This document shows positions 9,020-61,645 of a stretch of DNA of 64,000 nucleotides, piece after piece. The DNA comes from Parcubacteria group bacterium (GTDB lineage Bacteria; Patescibacteriota; Minisyncoccia; Moranbacterales; UBA9337): NCBI GenBank assembly GCA_041662245.1, contig JBAZSW010000004.1, positions 75,454 through 139,453 of the forward strand, given 5' to 3'. How positions within the stretch are numbered: the stretch's first letter is position 1; each line of letters opens with the position of its first letter. The notes beneath the pieces are model-generated. The model made no database searches. It saw nothing but the letters and a program-made list of their open reading frames with translations, and was not told the DNA's origin. A program made the position numbers and the translations under genes.

Positions 9020-9068
9020 TAATTTTAAATTTTGAATTTTAAATTTCAAATGAATGATTAAATTAATT
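9020..9068 (-). repeat. dispersed AT-rich repeat copy (minus orientation), left flank of the 9146..9595 cassette
   Basis: reverse complement reads TTTAGTCATT...AATCATTCATTTGAAATTTAAAATTCAAAATTTAAAA; matches the copy at 9721-9765. Confidence 0.6.
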
Positions 9069-9145
9069 AATGACTAAAACACAAACACAATAAATGAAAG
9101 ACAGAAACTAAAAAATAGTCCTGCCCCAAATACCGCTCCACATGT

Positions 9146-9595
9146 TTATCGCCAATTTCCGTATTGAATGCAATAACTCTTGGCCACAGGATTAACTTCT
9201 TGATGGATTTGCATCGAAATTGGATCACTCATAGTTATGCTATAAGCTGGTTGAACCGCTTTATTATAGTCACCAACAGCCCTTTGAAGGTCTAGACATG
9301 CGTCTCTCAATGTAACCGTTACAATCCCCGTTTCTCTAGAATTTTCTCCTTTACGAACTGTCCAGCTTCTGATTTCCGATATCTCGTTTCCAAGTTTAAT
9401 TACAAATTGAGTTTCTCTTTCTACTCTATCTGTCAAATGGCTAAATTCATTTAAACTTTGGTTTGCGCTCCAAGAAGAATATTCTTCACGAGCATACATA
9501 AAAACAAAAGAAAAAATCAGAAACACAATAGGAGTTAAAAGAGCTGAAACTGCCATATTTCCGAATACATCTCGATATCGATATTGCATTGTCAT
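9146..9595 (-). CDS. hypothetical membrane-anchored protein, GC-elevated, flanked by inverted repeat copies
   Basis: one N-terminal TM; no recognisable domain; GC visibly higher than neighbours. Confidence 0.45.
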   Translation of the reverse strand: MTMQYRYRDVFGNMAVSALLTPIVFLIFSFVFMYAREEYSSWSANQSLNEFSHLTDRVERETQFVIKLGNEISEIRSWTVRKGENSRETGIVTVTLRDACLDLQRAVGDYNKAVQPAYSITMSDPISMQIHQEVNPVAKSYCIQYGNWR

Positions 9596-9720
9596 AATAT
9601 CTCACCTCACGATTTTTGGTTTATAAGAAAGAGCTTTTAAATAATAACAATCATTCAATTAGGACCAACCTAACATTTTAAAATATTTTTGTAAAGATAT
9701 TCATGCTTTAAAAATTATAT

Positions 9721-9765
9721 CATTTAGTCATTCATTTGAAATTCCAAATTTTAAATTTGAAATTC
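9721..9765 (+). repeat. dispersed AT-rich repeat copy (plus orientation), right flank of the cassette; abuts the rnhB stop
   Basis: CATTTAGTCATTCATTTGAAATTCCAAATTTTAAATTTGAAATTC. Confidence 0.6.
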
Positions 9766-9766
9766 T

Positions 9767-10552
9767 TTAAGCTTTCCATCTATCATTAATCGCATTTCTA
9801 ACAGGAGCAAATGTTTTGCGGTGAATTTTACAAGGACCATTTTGTTTTAATGCTTCAATATGAATTTTAGTGCCATAACCCTTGTGTTTGGCAAATTGAT
9901 AGGCGGGATATTCTTTATCAAACTTATTCATTATCCTATCTCGCGTAACTTTGGCAATTATAGAAGCAGCTGAGATTGATTTTACTAATTTATCACCGCT
10001 AATTATTGCTTTTTGCTCTAGCGAAAAATTAGGAATCATTTTGTCCCCATCTACTAAAATTATTATTTTTTTCTGCTCTTTAATTTGAGATTTTAAATCT
10101 CCAATTGCTTTTTTCATTGCTAGAAATGTCGCCTCCAAAACATTTATTCTATCTACCGTTTCGTGATTACAAATCCCCACTCCCACATAAAAATTTTCCA
10201 TAATAAATCCAAAAACCTCCTCTCGTCTTTTCTCGCTCAATTTTTTAGAATCTCTGATTAAATCCCACATCCTTTCCTCTCCCCCTCTCCGAGGGGGAGA
10301 TGTCCGAAGGACAGAGGGGGTGTTTCCTATTTTTTTATCATTTGAATTTGATTTGAAATTTGAAATTTGAAATTTTGAATTCCGAACCACTACCGCCGCT
10401 GCCACTACTGGTCCGGCCAGCGGTCCCCTGCCTGCCTCGTCCACACCCACCACAAAATCCCAACCTTTACCAAAAAGATCTTTTTCTAATTCAAACCTGT
10501 CAATCGCAACTGACGGGTTCAAAGTAGATTCTAATTTTACTTTATTTTTCAT
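9767..10552 (-). CDS. rnhB: ribonuclease HII carrying an in-frame insertion of about 40 aa
   Basis: VVGVDEAGRGPLAGPVVAAAVVV catalytic motif and DSKKLSEKRREE; 261 aa vs about 200 typical; extra segment RNSKFQISNFKSNSNDKKIGNTPSVLRTSPPRRGGEERMW lies between these two motifs. Confidence 0.9.
   Translation of the reverse strand: MKNKVKLESTLNPSVAIDRFELEKDLFGKGWDFVVGVDEAGRGPLAGPVVAAAVVVRNSKFQISNFKSNSNDKKIGNTPSVLRTSPPRRGGEERMWDLIRDSKKLSEKRREEVFGFIMENFYVGVGICNHETVDRINVLEATFLAMKKAIGDLKSQIKEQKKIIILVDGDKMIPNFSLEQKAIISGDKLVKSISAASIIAKVTRDRIMNKFDKEYPAYQFAKHKGYGTKIHIEALKQNGPCKIHRKTFAPVRNAINDRWKA
10265..10384 (-). repeat. about 120-nt composite element inserted in-frame in rnhB: GC-rich hairpins plus a TTGAAAT tandem-repeat module
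   Basis: coding-strand hairpins GTCC-TTCG-GGAC and CTCCCCCTC-GGA-GAGGGGGAG; TTGAAAT x4; absent from E. coli and B. subtilis RNase HII at this position. Confidence 0.7.
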
Positions 10553-10783
10553 ATATTTTTAATCATATTAGCACTTTAGCATATTAGTATAAAAACAATA
10601 CAAATGTTCAATAACCAATATTCAATATAAAGATCCTAAGTCTTAAATTCCTAGCTTCCTATTATTCCTAAATTCTTTAAGTATTGCTTTTTCCACATTT
10701 TAATTATACACTTTTTAAACAACTTACAAAGTTGTAATAAAAAAAATAGTACCTCTTACCTTCAATAATATAGGAGAAACAAG

Positions 10784-11527
10784 ATGAAAAAAAGACCAAT
10801 TGGCTTTTCGACTGGAACATTCTTTAAATTCCTAGACCCCATAGTGAAAGAAGCTGTTTATTTCGTGCAAGATTTTGGATGCGACACCATTGAGATTAAC
10901 TGGCATCGCAAAGAATCTCAGCCTCCTCATAAAAATCTAGGCACATTAATTGACAAGCAATTTCAATACGTATCCCTACATTTACCCGTTAATATGTCTG
11001 ACGGTAGTGGTATTTTTAAGGCTAATGAAATTTTAAATCGAGCTTATAGATTTTTTTCTCAGTGTCACGCTTTCAGTCATGCGGTGATTCATCCAAATCT
11101 AATAGTTGATTGGGATGAATTTTATCAGATGTTTAACCACAATCTTGCATTGCCCTTGGCTATTGAAAATATGGACGATCGAAAAAAGTCCTTTAGAGAT
11201 TTACCGTCGCTGTTGGAATTTTTTAAAAAATATCCAGCTATTAGCCTAGTATTTGATGTTAATCATTGGATTATTAATGGCAACAGCGTTTCATCCATTT
11301 CCAAAACTCTCGAAGCGCTTTTTTTGGCTGGAATTAAATTGGTTGGAATTCATCTTAGCGGAGCTGGATTTCATGAACCACTTTTTAGGACTCCCCGTGC
11401 AACGGAAATTGTAAAGTCACTAAGTATACTTCCGTCAAACATTCCCATTATCATCGAAAGTATTTTTGAAAACACAAATGAGCCCGCTCAGGAATTGGCT
11501 TTTATCAAAAAATATCTAGAAATTTAA
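10784..11527 (+). CDS. xylose-isomerase-like TIM-barrel protein (sugar phosphate isomerase/epimerase family), tentative
   Basis: pattern of FSTGTF..., IEINWH, SLHLP, VIHPN, LAIENMDD, FDVNHW; no stronger match. Confidence 0.45.
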   Translation: MKKRPIGFSTGTFFKFLDPIVKEAVYFVQDFGCDTIEINWHRKESQPPHKNLGTLIDKQFQYVSLHLPVNMSDGSGIFKANEILNRAYRFFSQCHAFSHAVIHPNLIVDWDEFYQMFNHNLALPLAIENMDDRKKSFRDLPSLLEFFKKYPAISLVFDVNHWIINGNSVSSISKTLEALFLAGIKLVGIHLSGAGFHEPLFRTPRATEIVKSLSILPSNIPIIIESIFENTNEPAQELAFIKKYLEI

Positions 11528-12295: not shown

Positions 12296-12450
12296 TATCC
12301 CGCCCAAAACCTTAACTAACTAATCGAGCTGGTAGAAAATAAGCCGAAGGCGATTTAGAGAACAGCCTATCTGCAAACTCCGGCTGACCCTGGGTTTTGT
12401 TGCGGGATATTTTTCGCTCTAAATTGCAAGGAATAAACCCCTCCCCAACC

Positions 12451-12528: not shown

Positions 12529-15500
12529 ATGGAAAACGACCCTCAAACAATCAAACCTACTAATAAATTTACTCATCTTCATGTTCATAGTCACTATTCA
12601 TTACTGGATGGGCTAGCTAAAATTGATGATCTTCTAAAAAGAGCTAAGGAATTAGGCATGGACTCGCTAGCACTGACCGATCACGGAGTGATGTATGGAA
12701 TTGTAGAATTTTTTATTAAAGCCAAAGAAGCAGGCATTAAACCCATTATTGGTTGTGAAATGTATCTTACTCCCGCTAGTCGTACCAGCAAAAATAACAC
12801 CGCTGAAGATAAAACTCGTTATCATTTAACTCTCTTGGTTAAGAATGAAAAAGGCTACAAAAACTTAATGAAATTAGTTTCCGTTGCTCATCTGGAAGGT
12901 TTTTATTATAAACCTCGTATTGATAAAGAAATTTTAGAAAAATACTGCGAAGGATTAATTTGTATGAGTGGTTGTGTCCAAGGAGAAATTCCTCAAACTA
13001 TTATTAAAAAAACATATGAAGAAGCCAAGGAAATAGCTCTTTGGTATGATAAAATTTTTGGTCGAGGAAATTTCTATATGGAGTTGCAACACCATCCAGG
13101 ACAAGCTGATCAAAAGTTTGCTAATGGAGGTATGATTCAAATATCCAAAGAAACTGGCATCCCTGTAGTCGCCACAGGAGATATTCATTATACCAAAGCG
13201 GAAGATGCTGAAACTCAAGACATCCTTCTTTGTATTCAGATGAATAGAAAGGTTCATGAAAAAAACAGACTGAGCTTAATGGACTTTCATCTCTATATGA
13301 AATCACCCGAAGAGATGGAGGAATTTTTTAAAGATGTTCCCAATGCCGTTAGCAACACCCAAGAAATAGTAGCTAAATGTAATTATGATATTCCCTTGGG
13401 AGAAATTCAACTTCCTTATTTTGAAGTACCCAAAGAGTTCGATGATAAAAGCTACTTGAGATATTTGACCCAAAAGGGTCTTGAAGAAAAATTTGGAGAC
13501 AAAATTACTGACAAGCACCGCGAAAGAATGGAATACGAACTTTCCATTATTGAAAAAATGGGATATTCTCCCTACTTTTTAATCGTTCAAGATTTTGTTA
13601 ACTGGGCTAAACAGCAAGGAATCGTGGTGGGTCCCGGAAGAGGAAGCGCAGCAGGAAGCTTCGTTTCTTATTTGGTGGGAATTACCAATCTTGATCCAAT
13701 TAAATATGATTTGCTTTTTGAAAGATTCCTAAATCCCGAAAGAGTTTCGATGCCTGATGTTGATATGGATTTCGCTGATGATAGGCGCGACGAAGTTTTA
13801 GATTATGTGAGAAAAAAATATGGTGATGATCATGTGGCTCAAATTATTACTTTTGGAACAATGGCGGCTCGTGCAGCCATTCGCGATGCAGGACGTGCTT
13901 TGGATTATCCTTATGACTATTGCGATAAAACAGCCAAGATGATTCCTATGTTTTCCACTATCGCCGAAGCATTAGAGGATGTGCCAGAATTTAGTAATTT
14001 TTATAATTCAGATAAAGATGCTAAAAAATTAATTGATAGTGCTAAAAATTTAGAAGGAGTTTGTCGACATGCTTCTATGCATGCTTGTGGAGTAGTAATT
14101 ACCAAAGAGCCTGTTACTAATTATTCTCCCCTTCAAAAAATTATTGGCAAAGAAGATGGAGTAGTAACTCAATATTCTTCTTCAACTAAAAGTAGCTACG
14201 TGGAAAAAATTGGCCTACTCAAAATGGACTTTTTGGGACTAAAAAATTTAACCATCATTCAAAATGCTATCAACATTATTGAAAAAACCAAAGGAGTTAA
14301 AATAAATATTGATGATATCCCTCTAGATGATGAGGCTACTTATAAACTATTGCAAGCTGCTCATACCACAGGAGTATTCCAGTTGGAATCCTCAGGCATG
14401 AAGCGTTATTTAAAACAACTCAAACCCAACAATCTCGAAGATGTAATTGCAATGGTGGCATTATATCGTCCCGGACCAATGGACTGGATTCCTGATTTTA
14501 TTGACAGAAAGCACGGACGAAAAAGGATTGAATACATTCATCCTAAATTGGAACCCATCTTAAATAAAACTTATGGAGTAGCTGTTTATCAAGAACAAGT
14601 GATGCAAATGGCTCAAAGCTTAGCAGGTTATTCCTTAGGGGGTGCTGATATGCTCAGGAAAGCGATGGGTAAAAAAATTCCCGAATTAATTCAGAAAGAA
14701 AAAATTAAATTCATTGATGGAGCTGTACAAAACGGAGTTAACAGAAAAGATGCCGAAAAAATATTTGCCTTTATTGAGCCTTTTGCAGGCTACGGATTTA
14801 ATCGTAGTCATGCCGCTTGTTATGCTCTTGTTGGTTACCAAACGGCTTATCTCAAAGCCCATTATCCAGCGGAATTCATGGCTGCTTTAATGACCTCTGA
14901 CCAAGGCAACATCGAAAGAATCGCTATTGAAGTGGAGGAATCTCAAGATATTGGAATTGCAGTTTTACCACCTAACGTTAATGAAAGTTTTGGGGAATTT
15001 GCCGTAATTAAAAGTGAAAATGACAAAGTAAATATTCGCTTTGGTTTGAAAGCTATTAAAAATGTAGGCCATACTGTGGCTGATGAAATTGTTAAAGAAA
15101 GAAAACGAAATGGAAAATACAAATCCTTGGCCGATTTCTTAGAAAGAGTTATTACAAAAGATTTAAACAAAAAATCTATTGAAGCATTGGCTAAAGTGGG
15201 TGCGTTAGATGATTTAGGGGAAAGAAACCAAATTATCGAAAACATTGAAATTATCTTGAATTTTTCCAAAAGTATTCAAAAAATAAACAATGCCAATCAA
15301 GATAATCTTTTTGGCGCAATGGAAATAAAAACTCCTGCCATCAAATTAGCGCTAACGATTCCCGCTACCAAAAATCAAAGGTTACATTGGGAAAAGGAGC
15401 TTTTAGGATTGTATGTTTCTGATCATCCTATTTCTGAATACAAATATTTTTTTGAAAAAATGACCACTCCAATTTCATCACTAGATAATTCCATGGTTGG

Positions 15501-16035
15501 CAAAAGTGTTAAGGTAGGAGGAGTAATTACTAAAGTACAAAGAATCATGACCAAGCGAAAGCAAAACATGGCTTTTGTCACCATTGAAGATTTAAGAGGG
15601 AGAATCGAGCTTTTGGTTTTTCCTTTTGTCCTAGAAACCACGGGAGCGGTTTGGCAAGAAGAAAAAATAATTTTAGCTGATGGAAAATTATCCGATAAAG
15701 ATGGCTCATTTAAATTAATTGTTGATGATGCTAAAGTGGTTGATGATGCCGAGATGAATAAATTTAAAAGAATCTTAGTTACTCAAGAAAAAAATAATCG
15801 TCCGATTTCTCAAATTGACGTCTCTAAAATGATTATCACTTTTCCTAAATCTGCCAGCAAAAGCACCATAGGCAGACTTTCTAAATTATTCGATTCTTGC
15901 ACATTAGGGAAAACTTTGATTTTCCTTTATATTAACGGCACTAAAATACAAACCAACTACAGCTTGCAACTAGACGATGCCTTGATGGAAAAAATAAAAG
16001 AAATTATCCCCAAAGGAGAATTTAAAATGGAATAA
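12529..16035 (+). CDS. dnaE: DNA polymerase III alpha subunit
   Basis: PHP domain HLHVHSHYSLLDGLAKIDDL; polymerase core; OB-fold near the C-terminus. Confidence 0.95.
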   Translation: MENDPQTIKPTNKFTHLHVHSHYSLLDGLAKIDDLLKRAKELGMDSLALTDHGVMYGIVEFFIKAKEAGIKPIIGCEMYLTPASRTSKNNTAEDKTRYHLTLLVKNEKGYKNLMKLVSVAHLEGFYYKPRIDKEILEKYCEGLICMSGCVQGEIPQTIIKKTYEEAKEIALWYDKIFGRGNFYMELQHHPGQADQKFANGGMIQISKETGIPVVATGDIHYTKAEDAETQDILLCIQMNRKVHEKNRLSLMDFHLYMKSPEEMEEFFKDVPNAVSNTQEIVAKCNYDIPLGEIQLPYFEVPKEFDDKSYLRYLTQKGLEEKFGDKITDKHRERMEYELSIIEKMGYSPYFLIVQDFVNWAKQQGIVVGPGRGSAAGSFVSYLVGITNLDPIKYDLLFERFLNPERVSMPDVDMDFADDRRDEVLDYVRKKYGDDHVAQIITFGTMAARAAIRDAGRALDYPYDYCDKTAKMIPMFSTIAEALEDVPEFSNFYNSDKDAKKLIDSAKNLEGVCRHASMHACGVVITKEPVTNYSPLQKIIGKEDGVVTQYSSSTKSSYVEKIGLLKMDFLGLKNLTIIQNAINIIEKTKGVKINIDDIPLDDEATYKLLQAAHTTGVFQLESSGMKRYLKQLKPNNLEDVIAMVALYRPGPMDWIPDFIDRKHGRKRIEYIHPKLEPILNKTYGVAVYQEQVMQMAQSLAGYSLGGADMLRKAMGKKIPELIQKEKIKFIDGAVQNGVNRKDAEKIFAFIEPFAGYGFNRSHAACYALVGYQTAYLKAHYPAEFMAALMTSDQGNIERIAIEVEESQDIGIAVLPPNVNESFGEFAVIKSENDKVNIRFGLKAIKNVGHTVADEIVKERKRNGKYKSLADFLERVITKDLNKKSIEALAKVGALDDLGERNQIIENIEIILNFSKSIQKINNANQDNLFGAMEIKTPAIKLALTIPATKNQRLHWEKELLGLYVSDHPISEYKYFFEKMTTPISSLDNSMVGKSVKVGGVITKVQRIMTKRKQNMAFVTIEDLRGRIELLVFPFVLETTGAVWQEEKIILADGKLSDKDGSFKLIVDDAKVVDDAEMNKFKRILVTQEKNNRPISQIDVSKMIITFPKSASKSTIGRLSKLFDSCTLGKTLIFLYINGTKIQTNYSLQLDDALMEKIKEIIPKGEFKME

Positions 16036-30017: not shown

Positions 30018-31049
30018 CTATCTTAAAATTAATTTTTCTTTTCTATTTATAAATCCGTAAAAAAATAGCATAATTAAAATCAAGCCCACTATTATTAAGA
30101 TTTTGCCCCAACCACTAACATTTAAAGCTACGCTCGCCACCAAAATAGTAACCAAATAGAAAAAAATATTTATTTTTTTCTGAGACCAACCAATATTAGT
30201 TAATTTGTGATGCAGATGCTCTCTGTCGGCCGAAAATATTGATTTTCCAAATTTTATCCTTTTTAAAATAACCCAAAAAAAATCAATCAATGGAATAAAT
30301 AAGATTAATAATGTTGTAGCTATTTTTGTTCCCGCAAAGACAGATAAACTCGCCACAATAAATCCTACAAAAAAAATACCATTACTTCCAGCCATTATTT
30401 TAGCTGGAGGAAAATTAAACATCAAAAATCCCAATACTGCCCCAGAAAGAGCCACGGCTATTATTCCCACAGGAGGCTGATTGACTTCAGGCTTTAGAGA
30501 TAACAAAAAGATAGACAAAATCCCAATAAAATAAATACCCATACTTATACCATCAATGCCATCTAGCCAGTTCATGGAATTCATTAAAATTATTGACCAA
30601 ACACCTGCCAATAAAATGCCCGCCAAAATACCCCACAGACTATCTAACTGTATCATGTTTCCAAAAGGATTGGAGATATAATATATTCTAACACCAAAAA
30701 TAAAAATTAAAAATACTGCTCCTATTTGAAAAAATAATTGTTTTTTCCAACTAATCTCTTTAAAATCGTCCCAGATTCCGACACCAAACATCAATAAGCC
30801 TCCCAATAAAATTCCTACAGTATCCTTCGTTAAAACCAAATTTTTATCTAATAAAACAACTCCCAAAAAAGAGATAGCAATAGCAATCCCTCCCCATCGA
30901 GATACGCCAGTATCATGAAAATGTCTTTTCCCTTCCCTTTTCTTTTCACTCCTTAGTACTATTTTATTGGAAAAAAACCTTATAACAAAAATCAAAATAA
31001 CACTACTGGCAAAGGACAACAAAAATGGAACTAAGTATAAATTTAACAT
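30018..31049 (-). CDS. MraY/WecA-family polyprenyl-phosphate N-acetylhexosamine-1-phosphate transferase
   Basis: GIWDDF and NSMNWLDGIDG motifs; polytopic. Confidence 0.8.
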   Translation of the reverse strand: MLNLYLVPFLLSFASSVILIFVIRFFSNKIVLRSEKKREGKRHFHDTGVSRWGGIAIAISFLGVVLLDKNLVLTKDTVGILLGGLLMFGVGIWDDFKEISWKKQLFFQIGAVFLIFIFGVRIYYISNPFGNMIQLDSLWGILAGILLAGVWSIILMNSMNWLDGIDGISMGIYFIGILSIFLLSLKPEVNQPPVGIIAVALSGAVLGFLMFNFPPAKIMAGSNGIFFVGFIVASLSVFAGTKIATTLLILFIPLIDFFWVILKRIKFGKSIFSADREHLHHKLTNIGWSQKKINIFFYLVTILVASVALNVSGWGKILIIVGLILIMLFFYGFINRKEKLILR

Positions 31050-48870: not shown

Positions 48871-50247
48871 TTATTCTGTACTGTTTTGAAATTCAAATTT
48901 CAAATCTTTTTTTAAGGTGTCTGTTTTTTCAAATTCTCCATCCTTAGTCTTGACTTTAACAGTTACAGGTACATCACCCACCCCCGATTGTTTTTGAATA
49001 AGTAGTTTATAATCCCCTTGTCTAACATTTTCCGGAAGCTCATATTTCAATCTAACTTTTGTTTCTCGATTAATTAAAACATGTAAAGTTGAACCAAAAA
49101 AACTTTTATTAAACTCTTCTCCCTCCAATGGATAGCTTACCATCTCTCTTTCTAATAACTTTGCTCCTTTGGGGGCATAAATTCTTAAATAAGAATGATA
49201 ATCACTAGTTCGCCAATCTCCATAAGTAGCTGTATGCTTGTAAAGAAGGAAAACCTCAGCTATTGGTTTTTCCCCTGTTAAATCGACATTATAAGATATA
49301 TTTCTTTTAATATAATAATCTGATTTTAAAGCTCCCATATTGGCATCCACCATCATAAAATAATCTCCACCCCAATCGGTATTAACCGCCCCATCCCAAT
49401 GCGTTTCAGTTACCATTTTTTGCAAATTTTGATCCGTAAAATTAAGCATCACATCCTTATTGCGAAGCTCTTCCAAAACAAAAGAAGCTAACTTAGGAAT
49501 ATTATTTAAACTCATCAATTTATCCGTTATCTGAGCAGCTAAAGTTTTCATAACATTTTTTCTGTTTTGAGTATCGATATCTTCATTTAAGATATATTTC
49601 TTTTCTACTATTTCTTCTAATTTCAAAACAGCATTATCGCTATTTAACTCAATTCCATTTACCGTCATTGGACCAGTCAAAGTAAAAATTCGACTGAAAG
49701 TATTGGCATTGGTAGCAATTACTCCATCAAAATTACTATTTCCCCCCGAAAGACGATAGAAGTATTTAGCTTTTTCTACATTAGTAGGATAATCTGGAGA
49801 AAAATTAGAATCTCTAAATTTCCATTTTTTCAGACTCATCATTTTTTCAAAAGGATAAGGGGTAGGAACTTTAACGGTGATTCTTTGATCAAGTAAATTA
49901 GCATCCTCAAAGGTTAGCCCTGTAACCATTCCGTCTTTTATTTTCAAAACCGCATATTGACCAAGGAATCCCCCTCCCGGACGAAGTTCCATATTATTTT
50001 GAAGTAATATCAAGAATCTTTTCTCTACACCAGTTTTTTTGGTAAACTCAGTCACCAAAGCATCAATTGTTTGAATTTCTTTTTTAGTATCTTCCTTTAC
50101 AGGAAGGAAATTGATAACATTTTTAGCTACCGAAATAGAATTGGCAATCATAGAAATTTTATCGCTCTTCTTGAATAAAATATATCCCCCGATACCCACA
50201 ATAATAATAACTACCGCCACGATAACTAATTTAATTTTTTTACTCAT
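48871..50247 (-). CDS. DUF4012-domain protein
   Basis: N-terminal TM; ELRPGGGFLGQYAVL signature; C-terminus DLKFEFQN is encoded by a partial copy of the dispersed repeat. Confidence 0.6.
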   Translation of the reverse strand: MSKKIKLVIVAVVIIIVGIGGYILFKKSDKISMIANSISVAKNVINFLPVKEDTKKEIQTIDALVTEFTKKTGVEKRFLILLQNNMELRPGGGFLGQYAVLKIKDGMVTGLTFEDANLLDQRITVKVPTPYPFEKMMSLKKWKFRDSNFSPDYPTNVEKAKYFYRLSGGNSNFDGVIATNANTFSRIFTLTGPMTVNGIELNSDNAVLKLEEIVEKKYILNEDIDTQNRKNVMKTLAAQITDKLMSLNNIPKLASFVLEELRNKDVMLNFTDQNLQKMVTETHWDGAVNTDWGGDYFMMVDANMGALKSDYYIKRNISYNVDLTGEKPIAEVFLLYKHTATYGDWRTSDYHSYLRIYAPKGAKLLEREMVSYPLEGEEFNKSFFGSTLHVLINRETKVRLKYELPENVRQGDYKLLIQKQSGVGDVPVTVKVKTKDGEFEKTDTLKKDLKFEFQNSTE

Positions 50248-51416
50248 TTATTTTTTATTTTATTATAAATATTTATGATTTCCTCTGCTGAAGATTCCCA
50301 AGTAAACTTTTCAATTAATTTTTTGGAGATTTCAGACATTAGCTTTATATTACCTTTATTTCTAAAAAAATACAAAATACCTTCCACGAGCCCATCAGCA
50401 TCAAATTCTTTTACATAATAACCTGCTTCGCCTAGATATCGCCTGTTGTTTTCTCTATCAAAACAAACTACCGGAAGCCCTGCGGCCATATATTGCAAGA
50501 TTTTTCCACTCGCTTGTCCCACTTGGGAAGTTTTGGGATCTATAGCAATATCACCCATTTTATTTACTCTTGGAAGATCAAAATAATTCAAAGGACTAAT
50601 TAACTTTACTACATTTTCTAAATTATTTTTTTTTATAAAATTTTCGATATTTTCTCTTGGCCCCCCCGCTAAAATAAAACTTATTCCTCCCAAATTCATT
50701 TTGGAAATTTTCAAAATTGCCTCCAGTAAAATATTAATTCCTTTATTGTTTACAAAAGCTCCCGAATAAATGACTTTTAATTCATCAACATTTTCCTCTT
50801 TCTTAAAATCATTTTTTTTATATTTATCTATGTTGACTCCATCTAAGACGACTCCGACATTATTTACCTTACCTAACCGATTTATTTTTCCCATCAACTC
50901 ATTTGAACTGGCAATAGTAAAGTCACCTAATTTAAAAATTATTTTTTCCAATAAATTAAAAATCTTCCTGACAAATCCCCCATTTAAATATCCATGAGAT
51001 TCCATCTCACTCACTAACTCTCCGTGAAAATCAGCCACCAATTTAATTTTTCGCCAAAAGAATAAATATTTGACAATCCAGCCAATTAATACCCCCTCGT
51101 GCAAATGAGCATGAATTATATCTGGCTTTTTTAAAAAAACTATTTTAGAAGTTTTCCAAATAAGCAATATATCCAATACCACTTTTTGCCAATCAGCTCC
51201 CGCTTCTCTTTTATTATACCAAAAAAGAAGTCGCGCCACTCGATAAACTTTTATTTTTGAATCTTCATTAATTTCATTTACATTGCGTCCCAAATGATAA
51301 GTAACGATATTCACTTCCACTCCTTTTTTTTCCAAAGCCAAAGCTTCTTCCAAAATCCTCATTGGAGTTCCTCTGTCTACAAAAAATGGCACAGGCGCCA
51401 CCATGGTTACTTTCAT
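50244..51416 (-). CDS. glycosyltransferase family 4
   Basis: GT4 N-terminal domain; C-terminal LQYMAAGLPVVCFD. Confidence 0.8.
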   Translation of the reverse strand: MKVTMVAPVPFFVDRGTPMRILEEALALEKKGVEVNIVTYHLGRNVNEINEDSKIKVYRVARLLFWYNKREAGADWQKVVLDILLIWKTSKIVFLKKPDIIHAHLHEGVLIGWIVKYLFFWRKIKLVADFHGELVSEMESHGYLNGGFVRKIFNLLEKIIFKLGDFTIASSNELMGKINRLGKVNNVGVVLDGVNIDKYKKNDFKKEENVDELKVIYSGAFVNNKGINILLEAILKISKMNLGGISFILAGGPRENIENFIKKNNLENVVKLISPLNYFDLPRVNKMGDIAIDPKTSQVGQASGKILQYMAAGLPVVCFDRENNRRYLGEAGYYVKEFDADGLVEGILYFFRNKGNIKLMSEISKKLIEKFTWESSAEEIINIYNKIKNK

Positions 51417-51526
51417 AAAAAAATAAATTAATTTCGAATTTGAGTCAAAAAAATAATTTTGATTATTTGAAATTTAAATTAAATGCAATAACACAACTAA
51501 TTTCTCAATGTAACAATACTATTTTT

Positions 51527-51588
51527 CATTAAGTCATTATTGAATTATAAATTCATTCGAAATTCAAAATTGGAAATTCAAAATTTAA
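51527..51588 (+). repeat. dispersed AT-rich repeat copy
   Basis: CATTAAGTCATT...AAATTCATTCGAAATTCAAAATTGGAAATTCAAAATTT. Confidence 0.6.
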
Positions 51589-51648
51589 CTAAAGTATAAA
51601 AAAACTGCTTGCTTTAAATTATACGTATTGAAAAAAATTATTATTCAT

Positions 51649-52515
51649 CTATCCTATTTTCCCTGTACTCCCAAACATATCCATTTTTTTCTTAACTACC
51701 TCGGTAACAGCGCTTCTGGCCGCTCCTAGATGTTCCCTTACATCAAATGACAATGATTTTTTACTATCAATAGTCTTTCCCAAGCTGCTTACAAAAGCTA
51801 CCCGTGAAGCAGTATCTACATTAAAACAATTTATCCCTCTTCTGACTGCTTCCGTAGTTTTTTCTTCTTCCCAATCGGAGGCACCATGCATAATAAGTGG
51901 CATATTCAATCTTCTATTAATTTCACCCAACCTCTCATAATCTGGTTCTGGTCGTTCCTTAGCAAAGTCATGAGCATTACCCACTGCCACAGCCAACGCA
52001 TCCACCCCTGTTTCTCTCACAAATTCTTCCGCCTGAGCAGGATCAGTCATATAATCATCCCAATTAATTTCCACCGAACCTACTTCTTTTAAATAAGGAA
52101 CATTTCCTAATTCTCCTTGAATAGTCACTCCTTTTTTATGACAAAAATCCGCAATTTTTTTCGTAGTCATCAAATTGTCAGAATATTTTTTTCTTGATCC
52201 ATCATACATCACTGAATTAAGTCCGATTTCTATAGCTCTTTGGACCACTTCGAAATCTTTTCCATGATCTAAGTGAATTCCTACAGGAATATGAGGATAA
52301 TAGTATTCCACTAAATTTTTAATCAACGCATACATTACTCTTCCTCCAGAATAATCCATTGTTTTTTCTGTTATTTGGATAATTACCGGAGAGTTTTTTT
52401 CTTTAGCCGCTTCTAAAATAGCTTGGGTAAATTCCAAATTAATTGTATTAAAGGCCCCCACAGCATAGTTTCCCGTGTTCGCATCATCCAATATTTTCTT
52501 TACTTTTTCTAACAT
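51649..52515 (-). CDS. fba: class II fructose-bisphosphate aldolase
   Basis: GAFNTINLEFTQAILEAA; HLDHG zinc ligands. Confidence 0.9.
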   Translation of the reverse strand: MLEKVKKILDDANTGNYAVGAFNTINLEFTQAILEAAKEKNSPVIIQITEKTMDYSGGRVMYALIKNLVEYYYPHIPVGIHLDHGKDFEVVQRAIEIGLNSVMYDGSRKKYSDNLMTTKKIADFCHKKGVTIQGELGNVPYLKEVGSVEINWDDYMTDPAQAEEFVRETGVDALAVAVGNAHDFAKERPEPDYERLGEINRRLNMPLIMHGASDWEEEKTTEAVRRGINCFNVDTASRVAFVSSLGKTIDSKKSLSFDVREHLGAARSAVTEVVKKKMDMFGSTGKIG

Positions 52516-53391: not shown

Positions 53392-54630
53392 TTATTTTTT
53401 TATATTTCTAATCAAATCCTCCATTTTGACAATTTTGCTTTCGCTAGAAGTTCTTTTTTTTATTTCTGCTCCACCAGCTATCAGTGACTTTTCGCTTATC
53501 ACCACTCGATAAGGAATTCCAATTAAATCGCTATCTGCAAATTTTTCTCCCGCCCGTACATCTCTATCATCAAATAGAACTTCTATATTTTGTGCAATCA
53601 AATCATCGTAAATTTTTTGCGCTTCCTTGTCTTTTCCAAGACTAATTAAATGCACGACAAATGGTGCGACACTCTCAGGCCAAATAATTCCCTTTTCATC
53701 GGCAAAATGCTCTGCAATTACACCCATTAAGCGAGTTATACCAATACCATATGAACCAAGATAGACAGAAATTTGTTTTCCATTTTCATCAGTTACAAAT
53801 AATTTCATATCGTCACATTTGGAAGTGCCGAAATTGAATATATTTCCTACTTCTGCCGATTTCACTTTAGTTAATTCATCTTTAGAAACTCCTAATTCTT
53901 TTAAAACAGTATCCTCCATGACTTCTTCATTTACTGCCAATCCTTTTTCCTTATTAACATAAATAAAATCTTCTCCTGCCTCTGTAATTGTTTGGAATTC
54001 GTGGCTATATTTAGTAAAAGCTCCCCCCGCAGCAAAAGTTATATAAGTAATATCACCCAATCCTACTCGATTAAAAACATTCATATAGGCATTTTTTACA
54101 CTTTCATAAAAAGCTAGATGTCTTTTTTCATCCACATCATAACTGTATAAATCTTTCATTACAAATTCCCTTCCGCGCATAATTCCACTTTTGGCCCTAA
54201 GTTCATTTCTTAATTTTGTCTGAAATTGATAAGCATAAACTGGGAAATCTCGATAGCTAGAAAGAAATCTTTTCATCATTTGAGTAATCGGCTCTTCGTG
54301 TGACCAACCAAAGCCAACCTCTGCTTCATTTTTAAGTTTTGATTTAAACCACACATCCACCACCTCATCACTCCACCGACCGGTTGATTGCCAAACCTCT
54401 TTGGGCTGCAAAGATGACATAATTATTTCTTGTCCCCCAATCGCATTCATCTCTTCTCTTGCAATTGTTTTGATTTTTTCAATAACTCGAATTCCTAAGG
54501 GCAAATAAGCATATACTCCTGCCATTTCTTTGTTGATAAAACCAGCCCTGATCAAAAGCTGAGCATTTTTTGACACTTCATCTTTAGGAAAGTCTTTAGA
54601 TGTTTTGGTAAATAGTTGTGATTGCTTCAT
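53392..54630 (-). CDS. proS: prolyl-tRNA synthetase, short form without editing domain
   Basis: class II core motifs; C-terminal anticodon-binding domain; 412 aa. Confidence 0.9.
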   Translation of the reverse strand: MKQSQLFTKTSKDFPKDEVSKNAQLLIRAGFINKEMAGVYAYLPLGIRVIEKIKTIAREEMNAIGGQEIIMSSLQPKEVWQSTGRWSDEVVDVWFKSKLKNEAEVGFGWSHEEPITQMMKRFLSSYRDFPVYAYQFQTKLRNELRAKSGIMRGREFVMKDLYSYDVDEKRHLAFYESVKNAYMNVFNRVGLGDITYITFAAGGAFTKYSHEFQTITEAGEDFIYVNKEKGLAVNEEVMEDTVLKELGVSKDELTKVKSAEVGNIFNFGTSKCDDMKLFVTDENGKQISVYLGSYGIGITRLMGVIAEHFADEKGIIWPESVAPFVVHLISLGKDKEAQKIYDDLIAQNIEVLFDDRDVRAGEKFADSDLIGIPYRVVISEKSLIAGGAEIKKRTSSESKIVKMEDLIRNIKK

Positions 54631-54740
54631 ATAAGTTTATATTATTCTAAATAAAGCTTATGGTCAAACAATAATATTCATTAAATAGTTCATGCATCAG
54701 TAAATCAGTCCCTTACAAGAATATTAAATTTGAAATTTTG

Positions 54741-55898
54741 CTAAAATATATTTTTTATCTTATCTACAATCTCAAACTGGATGAAATCATGAAAAGTAAC
54801 CACTACCATCAAAAGTAACAATAATAAAAATCCAATTGAATTAGCCATACTTTCAAATTTTTGATTAACTGGGGAGCCTTTTAATTTTTCAATTAAAATA
54901 AAAAATATTCTTCCTCCGTCCAGTGCAGGAAAAGGCAAAATATTAATTATGGCCAGATTAATGCTAAGCATAGCGGCAAACTGTAAAATATAAGTAAAAC
55001 CAAGCGCACTTACTTGTTTGGTCATAATTGCAATTCCAATTGGCCCCGCTACGTCCATAGACGGTTTATTTCCCATAATCAATTGCCCTAGCAGAGCAAA
55101 AAGCGTAGTTACGATAAGAATAGTCATATCAACAACTGCTTCCAATCCTCTACCGATTGATTCATACCATGGGTAATCAATCAAAGCTGTTCTGGCCAAT
55201 CCTACTCCTAGAGCACCTTGATCACTAGGATAATCTACGCGAGGAATGCCACTTAGGCTAAGAATGTCCCCTCCTCTTTTGATAGTCAAAACTATTTCTT
55301 TGCCTTTGCGACCATCAATATATTTTTTCAATTCTTCAACTTTACTCACATATTGACACTCATCATTTCCTGAACAAATTTTTACCACTTGATCTCCGAT
55401 TGCCAGTCCCATTTCTTTAGCAGGAGTTCCCTCTACCACTTGAGAGATCTGCACTTTGGCGTCTTTGGCTTTTTGCGTATCACTGATAGCTTCTGGCGCC
55501 CCTTGAGAAAAAACAATAGCTAAAAGAAACCACGCTAAAATAAAATTCATCGTTACTCCTGCTGCTAGAACTTTTATTCTCACCCAAGCGGATTTAGTAA
55601 CAAAGCTATCTTTATCATTTTTGGCATTGCCGTTTTCTCCTTTAATATTTACAAATCCTCCCAATGGAATCCAATTAAGAGAAAAAATTGTATTTTTCGA
55701 TTTAACTGTTTTTCCGCCCCAAATTATTTTATATTTGCCGGTTTTTTCATTTTTTACCGCTCCTACAATTCTAGGAGGAAAACCAAAACCAAATTCATCA
55801 GCTTTGATACCATTGCGAATAGCCACTAAAAAATGTCCCAACTCATGAACGAAAATTAAAACTCCCAAAATCAAAATAAAGATGATCGCTGTTATCAT
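54741..55898 (-). CDS. rseP: RIP metalloprotease RseP (site-2 protease) with PDZ
   Basis: HELGHFLVA; PDZ; C-terminal LDGG motif. Confidence 0.88.
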   Translation of the reverse strand: MITAIIFILILGVLIFVHELGHFLVAIRNGIKADEFGFGFPPRIVGAVKNEKTGKYKIIWGGKTVKSKNTIFSLNWIPLGGFVNIKGENGNAKNDKDSFVTKSAWVRIKVLAAGVTMNFILAWFLLAIVFSQGAPEAISDTQKAKDAKVQISQVVEGTPAKEMGLAIGDQVVKICSGNDECQYVSKVEELKKYIDGRKGKEIVLTIKRGGDILSLSGIPRVDYPSDQGALGVGLARTALIDYPWYESIGRGLEAVVDMTILIVTTLFALLGQLIMGNKPSMDVAGPIGIAIMTKQVSALGFTYILQFAAMLSINLAIINILPFPALDGGRIFFILIEKLKGSPVNQKFESMANSIGFLLLLLLMVVVTFHDFIQFEIVDKIKNIF

Positions 55899-58382: not shown

Positions 58383-58826
58383 TCATTTAAATCCCTTAGC
58401 ATAATCGCCAAAGCTTATTCCATAATTTTTAGCCCAAACATCCATATTAATAAATTTGTTTTGAGTAACTTTAACTCTTAAATATTGGTGTGGTGAAATA
58501 TACCAAATCAAAGTCCACTTTAAAATGATGTCATCTTCTTTAAAAAAATTACTTTTTATCAACAATATCCGAGCTATATAATTAATATTCGTACAATGCA
58601 AAAACCCATTTTGATTCCAAAAAAAATTAATATCATTCTTAAAAATAGCTGGAAATCTTAAGTAAGTCATAACTCGAGCACCTTGATATTTTTTATTCAA
58701 AATATCATAAACCTTTTTTAAGCAATCTTCTTTACTAAAAGATTTTTTTAAATCATTAACAACCTCCTCCATTTCAACAGGTAGTTTTTGAGGTAATCTT
58801 GTTTTAGAAAATAAATCTAGAGGCAT
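58383..58826 (-). CDS. hypothetical protein
   Basis: complete ORF; no motif. Confidence 0.35.
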   Translation of the reverse strand: MPLDLFSKTRLPQKLPVEMEEVVNDLKKSFSKEDCLKKVYDILNKKYQGARVMTYLRFPAIFKNDINFFWNQNGFLHCTNINYIARILLIKSNFFKEDDIILKWTLIWYISPHQYLRVKVTQNKFINMDVWAKNYGISFGDYAKGFK

Positions 58827-58830
58827 AAGA

Positions 58831-58976
58831 TTTAATTTTAAATTTGAAATTTAGATTCAAATTCTAATTTATTAATTTTTCAAATATTTAAAATTTATTT
58901 TCTGAATTATTTTTTAACCTTATAATTTTAATCATTAAAAATTCATTTGAAATTCAAAATTTGAAATTTGAAATTT
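58831..58976. repeat. two copies of the dispersed AT-rich repeat (58831-58870 and 58941-58976)
   Basis: AATTCATTTGAAATTCAAAATTTGAAATTTGAAATTT and AAATTTGAAATTTAGATTCAAATTC. Confidence 0.6.
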
Positions 58977-59024
58977 AGATATAAAATTCTATTTTATAAA
59001 CATTACAACTTTAAAAACTATTTC

Positions 59025-60182
59025 CTAATAAACAATCACCGGCATCCCTATCTCCGCCCAATTATAAACAAACTCGGCTGGCCCCACTCCCAATCGCATA
59101 CAACCATGAGAAACAGGAATACCTAAGTGATTTTGTCCCTCCTTATAACCACTGGGCCACTCAGGGAGTTCATGAATCCCAAATTTACCACTCGGAGCAA
59201 TGGCCATCCAATAAGGCATATACAATCCATAATTTTTTGACCAAGCCCGCGGAGTTTTGTTATAAATTCTATGTTCACCCTTAGGAGTATCCATCCCGCG
59301 CTTTCCCGAGGAAATCAGAAATGAATCAATTATTTTTCCATCTTGGAAAACAGTCATAATTTGCGTCGATAAATTTACATCGATATATTTGCCTTCCCTA
59401 ATTTTCGCTTGAGTAAATTCTTTGGCCTGCTCCACCCTTTGGACTAAGTTTTCCGCCCAAGTTATCGGCTCAGGAGCCATCGTCGTAAAAGATGTTTGAT
59501 AAATTTGATTATAGGTATTGTCACTAGCCTTTTTAGCTTTAGCAAAAATCGTAAGGGTATACAAAGTATTATCTTTTAAATTTTCCTGAGGAAGAATTTC
59601 AAATTGAGTTTTATTCTCATTATTTTTATATTTCACTCCTGTTTCGGGAGAAAGTTTAAAATCAATAAAAAAATTCTCAGTTGATTTATCAAATTTTACA
59701 CCAATAGGATCTTCGATATCCAAACGTACATCAACTTCTCCACCTTTGGGAGCAACTCCTAAAACTCTAGGGTAACCAACAGTTTTAAAATCAAATTTAT
59801 CTGATTTTATCTGCATAAAATTTTTAGCTCGACCATCTGGCAAAATTAATTGATAAGCTGTATCTACTCTCCAGGCTGTTTCGGGGGTAATAGTTATCTT
59901 TGTCAGAGTTTCATCTATTTTGGCTTGCATAGGAGTTTCTGGAGTTATTTTAATATTATTCTGATAATATTTAATATCAATTGGTTTGGTAAAATTAATC
60001 ACCACCGAATCATTAGGTAAAAATTCTAAAAAATTTTTATTTTCGGCACTAGGAGTTAAAACGAACTGCGAAGAAAAAGCGTAAGTATAGACACCTAAAG
60101 AAATTACCCCTAAAAAGAAAAACAAAAAAATTATTAACTTGTATATTTTTTTCATATATAACACAATTTTTAAATTCTCCAA
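59025..60182 (-). CDS. L,D-transpeptidase (YkuD domain) with N-terminal Ig-like region
   Basis: catalytic HELPEW...HLGIPVSHGCMRL. Confidence 0.8.
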   Translation of the reverse strand: MENLKIVLYMKKIYKLIIFLFFFLGVISLGVYTYAFSSQFVLTPSAENKNFLEFLPNDSVVINFTKPIDIKYYQNNIKITPETPMQAKIDETLTKITITPETAWRVDTAYQLILPDGRAKNFMQIKSDKFDFKTVGYPRVLGVAPKGGEVDVRLDIEDPIGVKFDKSTENFFIDFKLSPETGVKYKNNENKTQFEILPQENLKDNTLYTLTIFAKAKKASDNTYNQIYQTSFTTMAPEPITWAENLVQRVEQAKEFTQAKIREGKYIDVNLSTQIMTVFQDGKIIDSFLISSGKRGMDTPKGEHRIYNKTPRAWSKNYGLYMPYWMAIAPSGKFGIHELPEWPSGYKEGQNHLGIPVSHGCMRLGVGPAEFVYNWAEIGMPVIVY

Positions 60183-60237
60183 CCCTTATAGTATATTATT
60201 TAAAATACTAAAAAGCTACCCGCTAAAACCTAACTAG

Positions 60238-60471
60238 CTATTTCAACGGATCATAGCCCCCGTCATTCCAAGGATGACATCGAATGATTCTCTTTAAGCC
60301 AATCCAAGCTCCTTTGATAACACCATATTTGTCTATAGCTTCATAAGTATATTGTGAACAAGTAGGATGAAAGCGACAAAATCTTTCCGAAAAAAAATAT
60401 CTTAAAAAACTTTGGTCGGGGGACAAAAACTTCTGATAAAATCTGATTAAAATCAAGGCTATTTTTTTCAT
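60238..60471 (-). CDS. yidD: membrane protein insertion efficiency factor YidD
   Basis: C-terminal [10 protein letters not shown]. Confidence 0.85.
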
Positions 60472-60585
60472 TTAAATCTCCTACTTGCATTTTGCAAATA
60501 AGCCAAATAAGTTATATAATAATGATATATGTTTTCTCAAAAAAATTCCAGTTTATTTGAGAAGATTTAATTATATAAAACAAAA

Positions 60586-61494
60586 ATGAAAAAGACTTCC
60601 TTTCACAATATTACTTGGATAGATTTCGAAAATCCCGATGCTTCCAGCACTCGTTACTTACAAGAAAACTTCAATATTCATCCATTGGCTATTGAAGAGT
60701 TTGTTACGCCCACCATTCGACCCAAAGCAACTGTTTATCCTAACTGTATTTTTCTTACCTTGCACATTCCTCTTTATGATACAGTTGAACGAACTACATA
60801 TCCTGGGGAACTGGATATTGTACTTACCAAGGATCATCTTATCACAGGACATGATCATAAAATTTTTCAGCTTACTGATTTTTTTGAAAAATTGCAGAGT
60901 AGCGAAGGGAAAAAAAGGATTTACATGAGTGCTACTCCTGCCCACCTCCTATATTACCTTATCGAAACTCTCATTGAATCTTGTTTTCCTAGATTAGATC
61001 ACATTCATAAGAATATTGATATTATTGAAAACCATGTTTTTAACGGGGAAGAGAAAGAAATGGTGAGAGAGATTTCTATTGCCAAAAGAGACGTCCTAAA
61101 TTTTAGGAGAGCGCTAAAGCCACAACGATCGATTTTGGAGTCCCTCGCTCAAATGGACACAAAAATTATCAGCAAAGATTTAAAAGATTATTATCAAAAT
61201 TTAGTAGGAACTAATATCAGATTATGGAGCTCTCTGGAAAGTGCCAAAGAAACCATTGAATCATTAGAAGAAACCAACAATTCTCTCCTATCCAATAAGC
61301 TAGATGTAACCATGAAAGTTTTGACAATTTTTTCAGCTGTGATGCTTCCCATGACTGTTTATTCCAATATTTTAGCTATGAGCGCTGATATTCCTTTTGG
61401 AAATAATCCTTATGGATTTTGGATTCATATGGGAATAATGTTTATATTATCGATACTTACCATACTATTATTTAAGATTAAAAAGTGGATCTAG
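60586..61494 (+). CDS. CorA-family divalent cation transporter homolog with AMS in place of the GMN signature
   Basis: aligns end-to-end with T. maritima CorA (HPLAIEE ... VMKVLTIFSAVMLPMT); GIYGMNF position reads NILAMSA. Confidence 0.75.
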   Translation: MKKTSFHNITWIDFENPDASSTRYLQENFNIHPLAIEEFVTPTIRPKATVYPNCIFLTLHIPLYDTVERTTYPGELDIVLTKDHLITGHDHKIFQLTDFFEKLQSSEGKKRIYMSATPAHLLYYLIETLIESCFPRLDHIHKNIDIIENHVFNGEEKEMVREISIAKRDVLNFRRALKPQRSILESLAQMDTKIISKDLKDYYQNLVGTNIRLWSSLESAKETIESLEETNNSLLSNKLDVTMKVLTIFSAVMLPMTVYSNILAMSADIPFGNNPYGFWIHMGIMFILSILTILLFKIKKWI

Positions 61495-61497
61495 ACA

Positions 61498-61537
61498 AAA
61501 AAATTTTGAATTTCAAATTTTGAATTTTGATTCAAGT
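61498..61537 (-). repeat. dispersed AT-rich repeat copy (minus orientation)
   Basis: reverse complement GACTTGAATCAAAATTCAAAATTTGAAATTCAAAATTTT. Confidence 0.55.
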
Positions 61538-61600
61538 CTTAATTTTTTAATATTAAAAAAACGCCTTGTTAAAAACTGCTATTTATAAAAAATATTTTCT

Positions 61601-61645
61601 ATCATTATTCCATTGGAAATTCATTCAAAATTTAAAATTTAAATA
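61601..61645 (+). repeat. dispersed AT-rich repeat copy (plus orientation) ending 5 nt before the cysS ATG
   Basis: TCATTATTCCATTGGAAATTCATTCAAAATTTAAAATTTAAAT. Confidence 0.55.

Follow-up and report, generated by a model that had tools for sequence, protein, structure and literature searches.

A foldback repeat with arms of four heptamers, probably a family of miniature insertion elements, in a Moranbacterales genome

We analysed a window of 64 kb (64,000 nucleotides; W in comparisons) from contig JBAZSW010000004.1 of a Parcubacteria group bacterium (Moranbacterales), in which a dispersed AT-rich repeat recurs, mostly between genes. The window has 32% G+C and is gene-dense, with the majority of its genes on the minus strand. 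About 45 of its 54 genes lack a Shine-Dalgarno motif, and AAAAAT or AAATAT typically stands right in front of the ATG; genes with GGAGG are few, and most of them lie in divergent spacers with canonical TTGACT-N17-TATAAT promoters. An Rfam search of the window returned no known RNA family and no rRNA gene. There is also no tRNA gene in the 64 kb, so that the arrays described below have no tRNA association there. The rnc gene is encoded at 7369..8058. For comparison, syntenic loci were collected for both ends of the window, and genomes (one per species) were scanned with the pattern TCATT(NNAAATT)x3. L-numbers denote loci from these other genomes, and counts from the scan refer to the matches listed, which came mostly from Patescibacteria and also from Bacteroidota, cyanobacteria and Acidobacteriota (Thermoanaerobaculia) of 55-62% G+C.

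In the strong copies of the window the arms read, in register, ATTCATT followed by exactly four heptamers YRAAATT. Two such arms face outward as an inverted pair around a non-repeat centre, which gives a foldback element of 140-175 nt with the layout (AATTTNN)4-AATGA-centre-TCATT-(NNAAATT)4. The copies and related features are as follows (E values are for a profile built from aligned copies, see below).

58825..58981, plus strand: c5, full-length copy (nhmmer E 2.8e-24)
58834-58854: left arm of c5, AATTTTA AATTTGA AATTTAG
58855-58942: non-repeat centre of c5, 88 nt
58948-58975: right arm of c5, TGAAATT CAAAATT TGAAATT TGAAATT, preceded by the junction ATTCATT
61496..61644, minus strand: c6/c7, full-length copy (E 5.3e-19)
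61502-61529: arm one of c6/c7, canonical on the minus strand, beginning 7 nt past the corA stop
61609-61643: arm two of c6/c7, canonical on the plus strand, its end 6 nt from the cysS ATG
51429..51593, plus strand: c4 (E 4.4e-20)
51551-51585: intact arm of c4, ATTCATT + CGAAATT CAAAATT GGAAATT CAAAATT
about 51432-51447: decayed partner arm of c4, near the glycosyltransferase ATG
9696..9766, plus strand: c2, half element (E 9e-4, profile positions 87-163)
9018..9081, minus strand: c1, half element (E 1.3e-4)
9146..9595, minus strand: ORF149, hypothetical membrane-anchored protein, cargo between arms c2 and c1
54720..54740, minus strand: remnant arm of three units, CAAAATT TCAAATT TAATATT, right after the stop of 54741..55898 (minus)
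48883..48906, minus strand: not an element; codes the conserved C-terminus KDLKFEFQ of a DUF4012 protein

c5 fills the spacer from the stop of the YkuD/Big_5 gene 59025..60182 (minus) to the ATG of 58383..58826 (minus), and the spacer of c6/c7 runs from the corA stop (61494) to the cysS ATG (61650). That of c4 is bounded by the stop of 51649..52515 (minus), a gene for fructose-bisphosphate aldolase, and by the ATG of the glycosyltransferase gene 50244..51416 (minus), and upstream of c4 stands a conserved -10-like ACGTATAAT. c2 consists of TTTAGTCATTCATT + TGAAATT CCAAATT TTAAATT TGAAATT, its array (9737-9764) ending at a distance of 2 nt from the stop codon of rnhB (9767). c1 consists of TTTAGTCATT...ATCATTCATT + TGAAATT TAAAATT CAAAATT TAAAATT (array 9021-9048) and ends 11 nt upstream of the -35 box of the conserved rpmF promoter (TTGCCA-N17-TAAATT, 9009-8981). 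Together, 9021-9081 and 9704-9764 form a 61-nt inverted pair, 79% complementary, with 622 nt between. For ORF149, which lies in this interval, a membrane segment is predicted at the N-terminus, and the gene has an extended -10 (TGATATAAT) and a Shine-Dalgarno sequence of its own; a Pfam search gave no match. Among the five genomes compared it was present only in W: the rnhB-rpmF spacers of L126 (90% amino acid identity), L127 and L002 are without it, and that of L005 carries two other genes as cargo in its place.

The repeats form a real, discrete family. The 28-mer core had 4 matches with at most 3 mismatches in the window compared to 0 in 100 whole-window shuffles, and three or more phased YRAAATT units occurred in 10 strand-specific clusters (0.34 expected). 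When the analysis was confined to intergenic DNA (9.26 kb, 72.6% A+T) and each spacer was shuffled 300 times with dinucleotides preserved, we found 12 arrays against 0.60 ± 0.91 (maximum 4) by chance. A preliminary description of this repeat had proposed this comparison with shuffled intergenic sequence as a check; the enrichment was there, so the motif is not simply the k-mer spectrum of the spacers. The coding DNA (54.7 kb) held 2 arrays, both within rnhB. Tandem Repeats Finder reported period-7 arrays of 4.1-4.6 copies per site. Two long 'spacers' of the window (44840-45040 and 57270-57470, minus strand) hold unlisted small ORFs, one ferredoxin-like (CxxCxxCxxxCP motifs) and the other a small membrane protein, and hence are not truly intergenic.

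One could still maintain that there is no discrete element and that the arrays are AT-rich spacer composition or ordinary microsatellite slippage, given a genome of 32% G+C, spacers of 73% A+T and the many unrelated 7-9 nt tandem arrays in the window. Besides the result of the dinucleotide shuffles, however, a fixed length of four units, a CATT junction and a conserved centre are foreign to any k-mer spectrum, and the same architecture is found in genomes of 55-62% G+C (L006, L013, L073). These tests already refute this explanation, and we give it practically no chance.

The preliminary description had listed eight copies, of which seven are genuine. Six of these (9020-9068, 9721-9765, 51527-51588, 58831-58976, which comprises two arms, 61498-61537 and 61601-61645) lie in spacers. 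The seventh (10336-10384) is not intergenic but sits in frame within the coding sequence of rnhB. The eighth, 48883-48906, was rejected: the peptide KDLKFE[VF] and its DNA were present in all five DUF4012 orthologs examined and the spacers downstream of them were unrelated, which identifies this match as coding conservation. What the description said on positions is correct, one array starting 2 nt past the rnhB stop and another ending 6 nt ahead of the cysS ATG. It had not noticed the four-heptamer count, the inverted pairing of the arms, the conserved centre and the 61-nt inverted pair.

The architecture extends to many genomes. In 129 independent occurrences among the scan matches listed, the fourth heptamer, which lay outside the search pattern, was AAATT in 80-84%. 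Past the fourth heptamer the composition was at once that of the background, and 5' of the arrays there was a decaying 7-nt periodicity, broken by CATT. With a relaxed detector, 304 arrays had three (101), four (166, the mode), five (32) or at least six (5) units. Arrays no more than 300 nt apart faced outward in 44 cases (arrays outside, AATGA...TCATT inside) and inward in 13. A 172-position profile built from nine aligned copies matched the window at three full-length (58825-58981, 51429-51593, 61496-61644) and two half copies (9018-9067, 9696-9766), and we count 5-6 insertions in these 64 kb. The profile also found full-length copies in many loci of the candidate phyla radiation (CPR) outside its training set. 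The element is short and without an ORF, like a miniature inverted-repeat transposable element (MITE). It also has the terminal inverted repeats of MITEs and foldback elements, as seen in the 61-nt pair of W, in the excess of outward-facing arrays and in the stem of an intact copy (L128, below).

Copies that share their internal sequence occupy non-orthologous sites, as is typical of MITEs. The 88-nt centre of c5 (58855-58942) was 92% identical over its full length to that of the L130/L131 element, which occupies another spacer, the one that separates the orthologs of 54741..55898 and 53392..54630. The identity to the element of L128, in the same spacer as that of L130/L131 and in the opposite orientation, was 80%. 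In W, the orthologous spacer contains the remnant arm 54720..54740, where L128, L130 and L131 have the full-length element. The search for the family in related genomes, which the preliminary description had also proposed, therefore gave a positive answer: the element, including its centre, recurs at other intergenic sites in both orientations.

Orthologous sites, in turn, differ in what they contain. At the c4 site an orthologous element is present in W, L131 and L133 (both arms intact in the latter two), the heptamers of L130 are different ones, L128 carries a GTCAT-heptamer palindrome, and the 68-nt spacer of L132 is empty. The corA-cysS site has four states among relatives, which include the ORF-less element of W, an 80-nt spacer with TATGCTAA-type arrays in L131, and a 23S_rRNA_IVP gene between inverted short arrays in L128 and L132. 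In L130 and L131 two spacers are unalignable while the flanking genes are 95-99% identical. In the rnhB-rpmF spacer of five Moranbacteria genomes, an array directly follows the rnhB stop in all, and a 4-5 unit array ends ∼11 nt before the conserved rpmF -35, with unit sequences that differ. Presence/absence polymorphism at orthologous sites, again as in MITEs, thus takes the form of replacements and not of clean insertions. A match to the element centre between nusB and rnc of L126 (74% over 84 nt) was dropped because the alignment was poor.

Intact copies can fold into long hairpins. The L128 copy (-38.6 kcal/mol, z = -7.5) forms a perfect 29-bp stem from both arrays, and the intact L059 copy had a z of -5.9. 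Several other relatives' copies were not significantly structured, and in c6/c7 the outer arms pair weakly in the minimum free energy fold (z = -1.25). Decay of copies after insertion would be expected to give such a pattern. Single arms gave no hairpin in ten folds covering both strands (z from -0.86 to +0.93), so they are neither hairpins of the repetitive extragenic palindrome (REP) type nor intrinsic terminators, and both readings of single arms were rejected. A terminator scan likewise found no terminator-like sites at the copies; the single site found lies inside a gene. Of the earlier proposal of a REP/MITE-like element, the MITE part is therefore supported and the strict REP part is not.

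Copies also occur in 23S rRNA genes. The 23S rRNA gene of L122, another CPR genome, contains three copies with 96-99% identity, and that of L113 contains two; one 23S copy is located at a helix tip, where 182 nt stand in place of a 6-nt loop. Short ORF-less inserts in CPR 23S rRNA genes are thought to be intervening sequences (IVSs) cleaved by RNase III (PMC11270868). This location raises the question whether the elements are functional processing hairpins, intercistronic or IVS-like, in which the arms pair in the transcript and RNase III cuts the stem. The cut would separate cistrons or free the rRNA of the insert, and such selection, rather than selfish spread, would set the stop-to-start position. 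The presence of one arm at a stop codon and the other at a start codon, like the base of a spacer-filling stem, agrees with this idea, as do the perfect A-U stems of at least 29 bp in intact copies and the presence of rnc in the window. In addition, the conserved -10-like box upstream of c4 indicates that c4 is probably transcribed as a 5' UTR. On the other hand, the window copies and several copies of relatives have no significant fold, meaning that stem integrity is not maintained, which argues against selection for pairing. The rnhB copy, moreover, is kept in frame, as if translated rather than excised. We therefore regard processing as a quite improbable reason for the existence of the family.

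The arrays lie close to gene boundaries. In the scanned loci the outer end of the array was about -2 to +12 nt from the boundary. Approximately half of the arrays were at the start codon of a same-strand gene (e.g. groEL, gap) or at a tRNA 5' end (two arrays 7-8 nt upstream of tRNAs), the other half were at the stop codon of an opposite-strand gene, and many spacers had both arms. Boundary-abutting arrays are what a spacer-filling palindrome would produce. The same positions could instead mean that the arrays are host cis-regulatory modules, either promoter- or UP-like or AU-rich leaders and standby sites for translation without a Shine-Dalgarno sequence. The arrays would then be renewed in situ by replication slippage, selection would hold the four units, and the dispersed look would be secondary. 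In many genomes the 3' end of the array is 0-12 nt away from a start codon, or 7-8 nt from the 5' end of a tRNA, which fits such a function, and the 28 nt of four units correspond to the distance from -35 to -10. TTGAAA-N16-TAAAAT occurs in the c1 arm, upstream of the conserved rpmF promoter, the majority of the window genes are without a Shine-Dalgarno sequence, and five genomes have arrays of differing units at the same two rnhB-rpmF positions. The TAACTGA heptamer arrays of Beggiatoaceae are equally close to start codons (PMC4679880).

Other evidence disagrees with a regulatory origin. The orientation relative to the adjacent gene is ∼50/50, half of the arrays abutting a stop codon in antisense. 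A σ70 promoter scan of three regions around window copies was at or below shuffle expectation, with c1 alone scoring 10/12 as a promoter, and element position 27 (the would-be -11 A) was A in just 43%. Copies are present inside a coding sequence and in 23S rRNA genes, the centre moves with the arms to non-orthologous sites and flips, and the orthologous spacer can be empty (L132). We rejected the promoter reading as a general rule, since the scans were not enriched and the -10/-35 geometry and the orientation did not fit, and consider a cis-regulatory origin of the family unlikely. Single copies, such as c1 close upstream of the rpmF promoter or the arms that abut start codons in a genome with few Shine-Dalgarno sites, may have been co-opted as an AU-rich leader or an upstream promoter element. 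The original suggestion, a selfish or structural element and not a conventional promoter, is thus supported by dispersal, site turnover, palindromes, rRNA copies and the lack of promoter enrichment.

The copy inside rnhB belongs to a larger insertion, with these features:

10271..10390, plus strand: in-frame insertion in rnhB, heptamer arm + G+C-rich double-hairpin module; codes ...NSKFQISNFKSNSNDKKIGNTPSVLRTSPPRRGGEE...
10275-10322: G+C-rich module, TCTCCCCCTC-TCC-GAGGGGGAGA and TGTCC-GAA-GGACA; codes NTPSVLRTSPPRRGGEE

The heptamer arm (10336-10384, ATCATT TGAATT TGATT TGAAATT x3 TTGAATT) is a half copy in frame inside the coding sequence 9767..10552 (minus) and codes NSKFQISNFKS. The NTPSVLRTSPPRRGGEE peptide is also present in rnhB orthologs of only 57-58% identity, and the DNA of the G+C-rich module recurs at unrelated loci (L131 2624-2653, L002 2059-2104, L098). 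At one loop of RNase HII, the inserts of orthologs vary widely in length or are missing, and many of the inserts code NFKFQISNF-like peptides, that is, heptamer arrays in the stop-free orientation. In rnhB orthologs with an insert, Met follows it directly (the ATG being preceded by a GGAGAGG-like sequence), and insert-less orthologs have Leu. The contig of one relative ends within the rnhB insert. A second G+C-rich hairpin island (CCTGCCTACCGGCAGGCAGG; CCCTTGCTAAGGGCAAGGG) is located at 12426-12499, in the spacer of 675 nt that lies upstream of 12529..16035, the gene for DNA polymerase III alpha. Another coding sequence, 35897..38107 (minus), contains a heptamer array at 37319-37392 (TTCTTAA x10.4, with a 21-nt super-period).

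Relatives of the element can carry an ORF. The IVP ORFs of L128 (3374-3739) and L132 (4378-4788) matched PF05635 with E values of 1.5e-39 and 9e-34. Inverted short tandem arrays flank six of the seven IVP genes seen (L128, L132, L009, L025, L067, L079, L053); the unit sequences vary, with AAATT-type arms in L053 (an Acidobacteriota genome of 58% G+C). IVP cassettes are thus inverted-array relatives with an ORF, but IVP is no known transposase.

Furthermore, several families share the foldback architecture with different units, namely AAATT, GTCAT, GTTAACGA, TATGCTAA and TTAAATC. Within the window, 31050-31198 has TTAAATC x4 at 31062-31092 before the ATG of 30018..31049 and four 9-mers (AGTTTTTAA/AGTTCATAA) at 31145-31180 after the stop of 31199..32308. 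Part of this region matches a non-orthologous L131 locus (86% over 73 nt) as well as inverted pairs in L084 and L137. The divergent spacer upstream of rnhB (10553-10680) holds three further short tandem arrays, in the order TGCTAANN 8-mers (∼10560-10600, abutting the rnhB ATG), AATATTC and TAAATTCC. Further members of the TATGCTAA 8-mer family abut the ATG of cysS in L131 and lie at 8394-8437 of L002 and, in L126, upstream of rpmF. In L126, the closest relative, the spacer past the rnhB stop (546-640) contains a hairpin of GTCATNN heptamers with a 31-bp stem (-38.3 kcal/mol, z = -7.0), and other spacers of L128 and L131 are taken up by this GTCAT family. Elsewhere in the window, adjacent response-regulator genes (3177-3476 and 3624-3923) are tandem paralogs with 75% DNA identity, and their place is held by a single copy in the relatives L002 and L126.

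Taken together, we think it probable that the motif forms the terminal inverted repeats of miniature foldback elements, a family of insertions of ∼140-175 nt that contain no ORF and resemble MITEs. The architecture, the dispersal to non-orthologous sites, the turnover at orthologous sites and the hairpin potential of intact copies were shown, as were the copies in 23S rRNA genes and the ORF-bearing relatives with 23S_rRNA_IVP genes between inverted arrays. In our model, the elements would insert, replace one another and invert wherever the DNA of compact CPR genomes tolerates them. Such DNA would comprise short spacers, filled until the arrays abut stops, starts, tRNA 5' ends or promoter -35 boxes, and also the tips of rRNA helices and surface loops of proteins (here RNase HII), the last in the stop-free orientation. 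New copies would be near-perfect hairpins and old ones, including those of the window, would have decayed. Movement could proceed by active transposition or by recombination through a trans-acting factor. Transcribed copies may be tolerated since RNase III would remove the A-U stem, as in classical rRNA intervening sequences, a step to which the stems, the rRNA location, rnc in the window and the literature on IVSs and CPR rRNA inserts (PMC11270868) point. Arms next to start codons or promoters might have been co-opted as AU-rich leaders or upstream elements.

Several observations weigh against an insertion element. The loci from the genome scan were chosen for having one arm, and unbiased observations in them are limited to the second arm, the fourth unit and the centre. 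We found no convincing target-site duplication at the L128, L059 and L130/L131 junctions or at the L122 rRNA insertion, where the flanks are AT-rich and there is no clean near-identical pair of filled and empty sites; a metagenome scan for closer relatives with such sites gave none above 85% amino acid identity. None of the ∼30 window ORFs screened against Pfam was a transposase or another known mobiliser. The difference between L130 and L131 runs a few codons into the downstream gene. Allelic replacement by homologous recombination, rather than exact insertion and excision, would leave such a boundary, and it accounts for the turnover as well as transposition does. The window copies fold no better than shuffled sequence (z = -1.25, 0.23 and -0.46). 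At the variable NN positions, paired arms are complementary in 40% compared to 30% with permuted pairs (5 of 2000 permutations reach the observed value); the presence of both intact and decayed copies can explain this weak complementarity. The exact four-unit count across phyla despite free NN positions, the conservation of c4 in three genomes and the array before the rpmF -35 in five genomes with differing units would also fit a selected cis function, with arrays regenerated in situ by slippage.

Among known systems, MITEs and foldback elements (Correia/NEMIS, Nezha) are likewise short, non-coding and multi-copy, with terminal inverted repeats and hairpin-forming intact copies, and they show presence/absence and replacement at orthologous sites and intergenic hot spots. 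They differ from the element described here in that no target-site duplication or cognate transposase was identified for the latter (∼30 window ORFs against Pfam), each of its arms has exactly four phased heptamers with free NN, and there are several parallel families. Inverted arms made of short tandem subrepeats, like those of the window element, are known from the FB elements of Drosophila. The palindromic elements of Rickettsia, of ∼100-150 nt, are inserted in frame in protein genes and translated as an extra surface peptide, to which the variable RNase HII loop insert can be likened; sequence and host lineage are unrelated, and the window has one coding copy, with the rest mostly intergenic. 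REPs and BIMEs, which RAYT transposases mobilise, are also abundant intergenic repeats, often just past stops and in both orientations, but they are usually G+C-rich single hairpins of 20-40 nt, whereas a single arm of our element forms no hairpin.

The 23S rRNA IVSs and the IVP ORFs (PF05635, bAvd-like four-helix bundle) resemble the element in location, since relatives of the window copies occur within 23S genes, at the tips of helices (L113, L122). They are alike in palindromic ends able to form a long stem, and ORF-bearing relatives of the element have IVP genes between inverted arrays (L128, L132, L009, L025, L067, L079, L053). In contrast, the window copies are outside rRNA and without an IVP gene, and classical IVSs have not been described as dispersed intergenic repeats or as heptamer-armed; RNase III excision of our elements is suggested by analogy. 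The TAACTGA arrays of Beggiatoaceae, cyanobacteria and Bacteroidetes are tandem heptamers in 2-6 copies (MacGregor 2015, PMC4679880), mostly a few nt upstream of start codons in the 'forward' orientation, with ORF-internal copies in the stop-free 'reverse' one, a patchy spread across phyla, a suspected mobile origin and unknown function (PMC4679880). These arrays and the cyanobacterial STRR heptamers (CCCCAGT and others) behave alike in position, but the unit differs (NNAAATT here), and no inverted pairing, conserved centre, fixed four units, or rRNA or IVP association is described for them. In the literature searched, which covered accounts of heptamers, promoters and repeats in CPR, we found neither heptamer-armed palindromes in CPR nor IVP genes with flanking inverted arrays, which is not proof of novelty.

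The observations suggest a link between the elements, the rRNA inserts, the protein inserts and the IVP cassettes. In its widest form, which we consider rather unlikely, the heptamer palindromes, the 23S inserts and in-frame protein inserts of CPR and the 23S_rRNA_IVP (bAvd-like) cassettes would be one mobile foldback superfamily common to CPR, Bacteroidota, Acidobacteriota and others. IVP, or some other factor able to recognise four AAATT sites in phase, would provide the mobility or maintenance function, and the ORF-less forms would be non-autonomous derivatives.

The genomes of CPR bacteria (Patescibacteria) are considered streamlined, with little mobile DNA. Despite this streamlining, most long spacers of the 64-kb window appear to hold decaying palindromic insertions. 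One architecture would explain the inserts in CPR rRNA genes, the hypervariable low-complexity inserts in proteins and the fast turnover of spacers between near-identical genomes. In practice, such elements break assemblies, inflate apparent 'lineage-specific' protein insertions and could mislead motif-based prediction of promoters or regulons. If the link to the 23S_rRNA_IVP cassettes is true, a role that can be tested would follow for this large family of unknown function.

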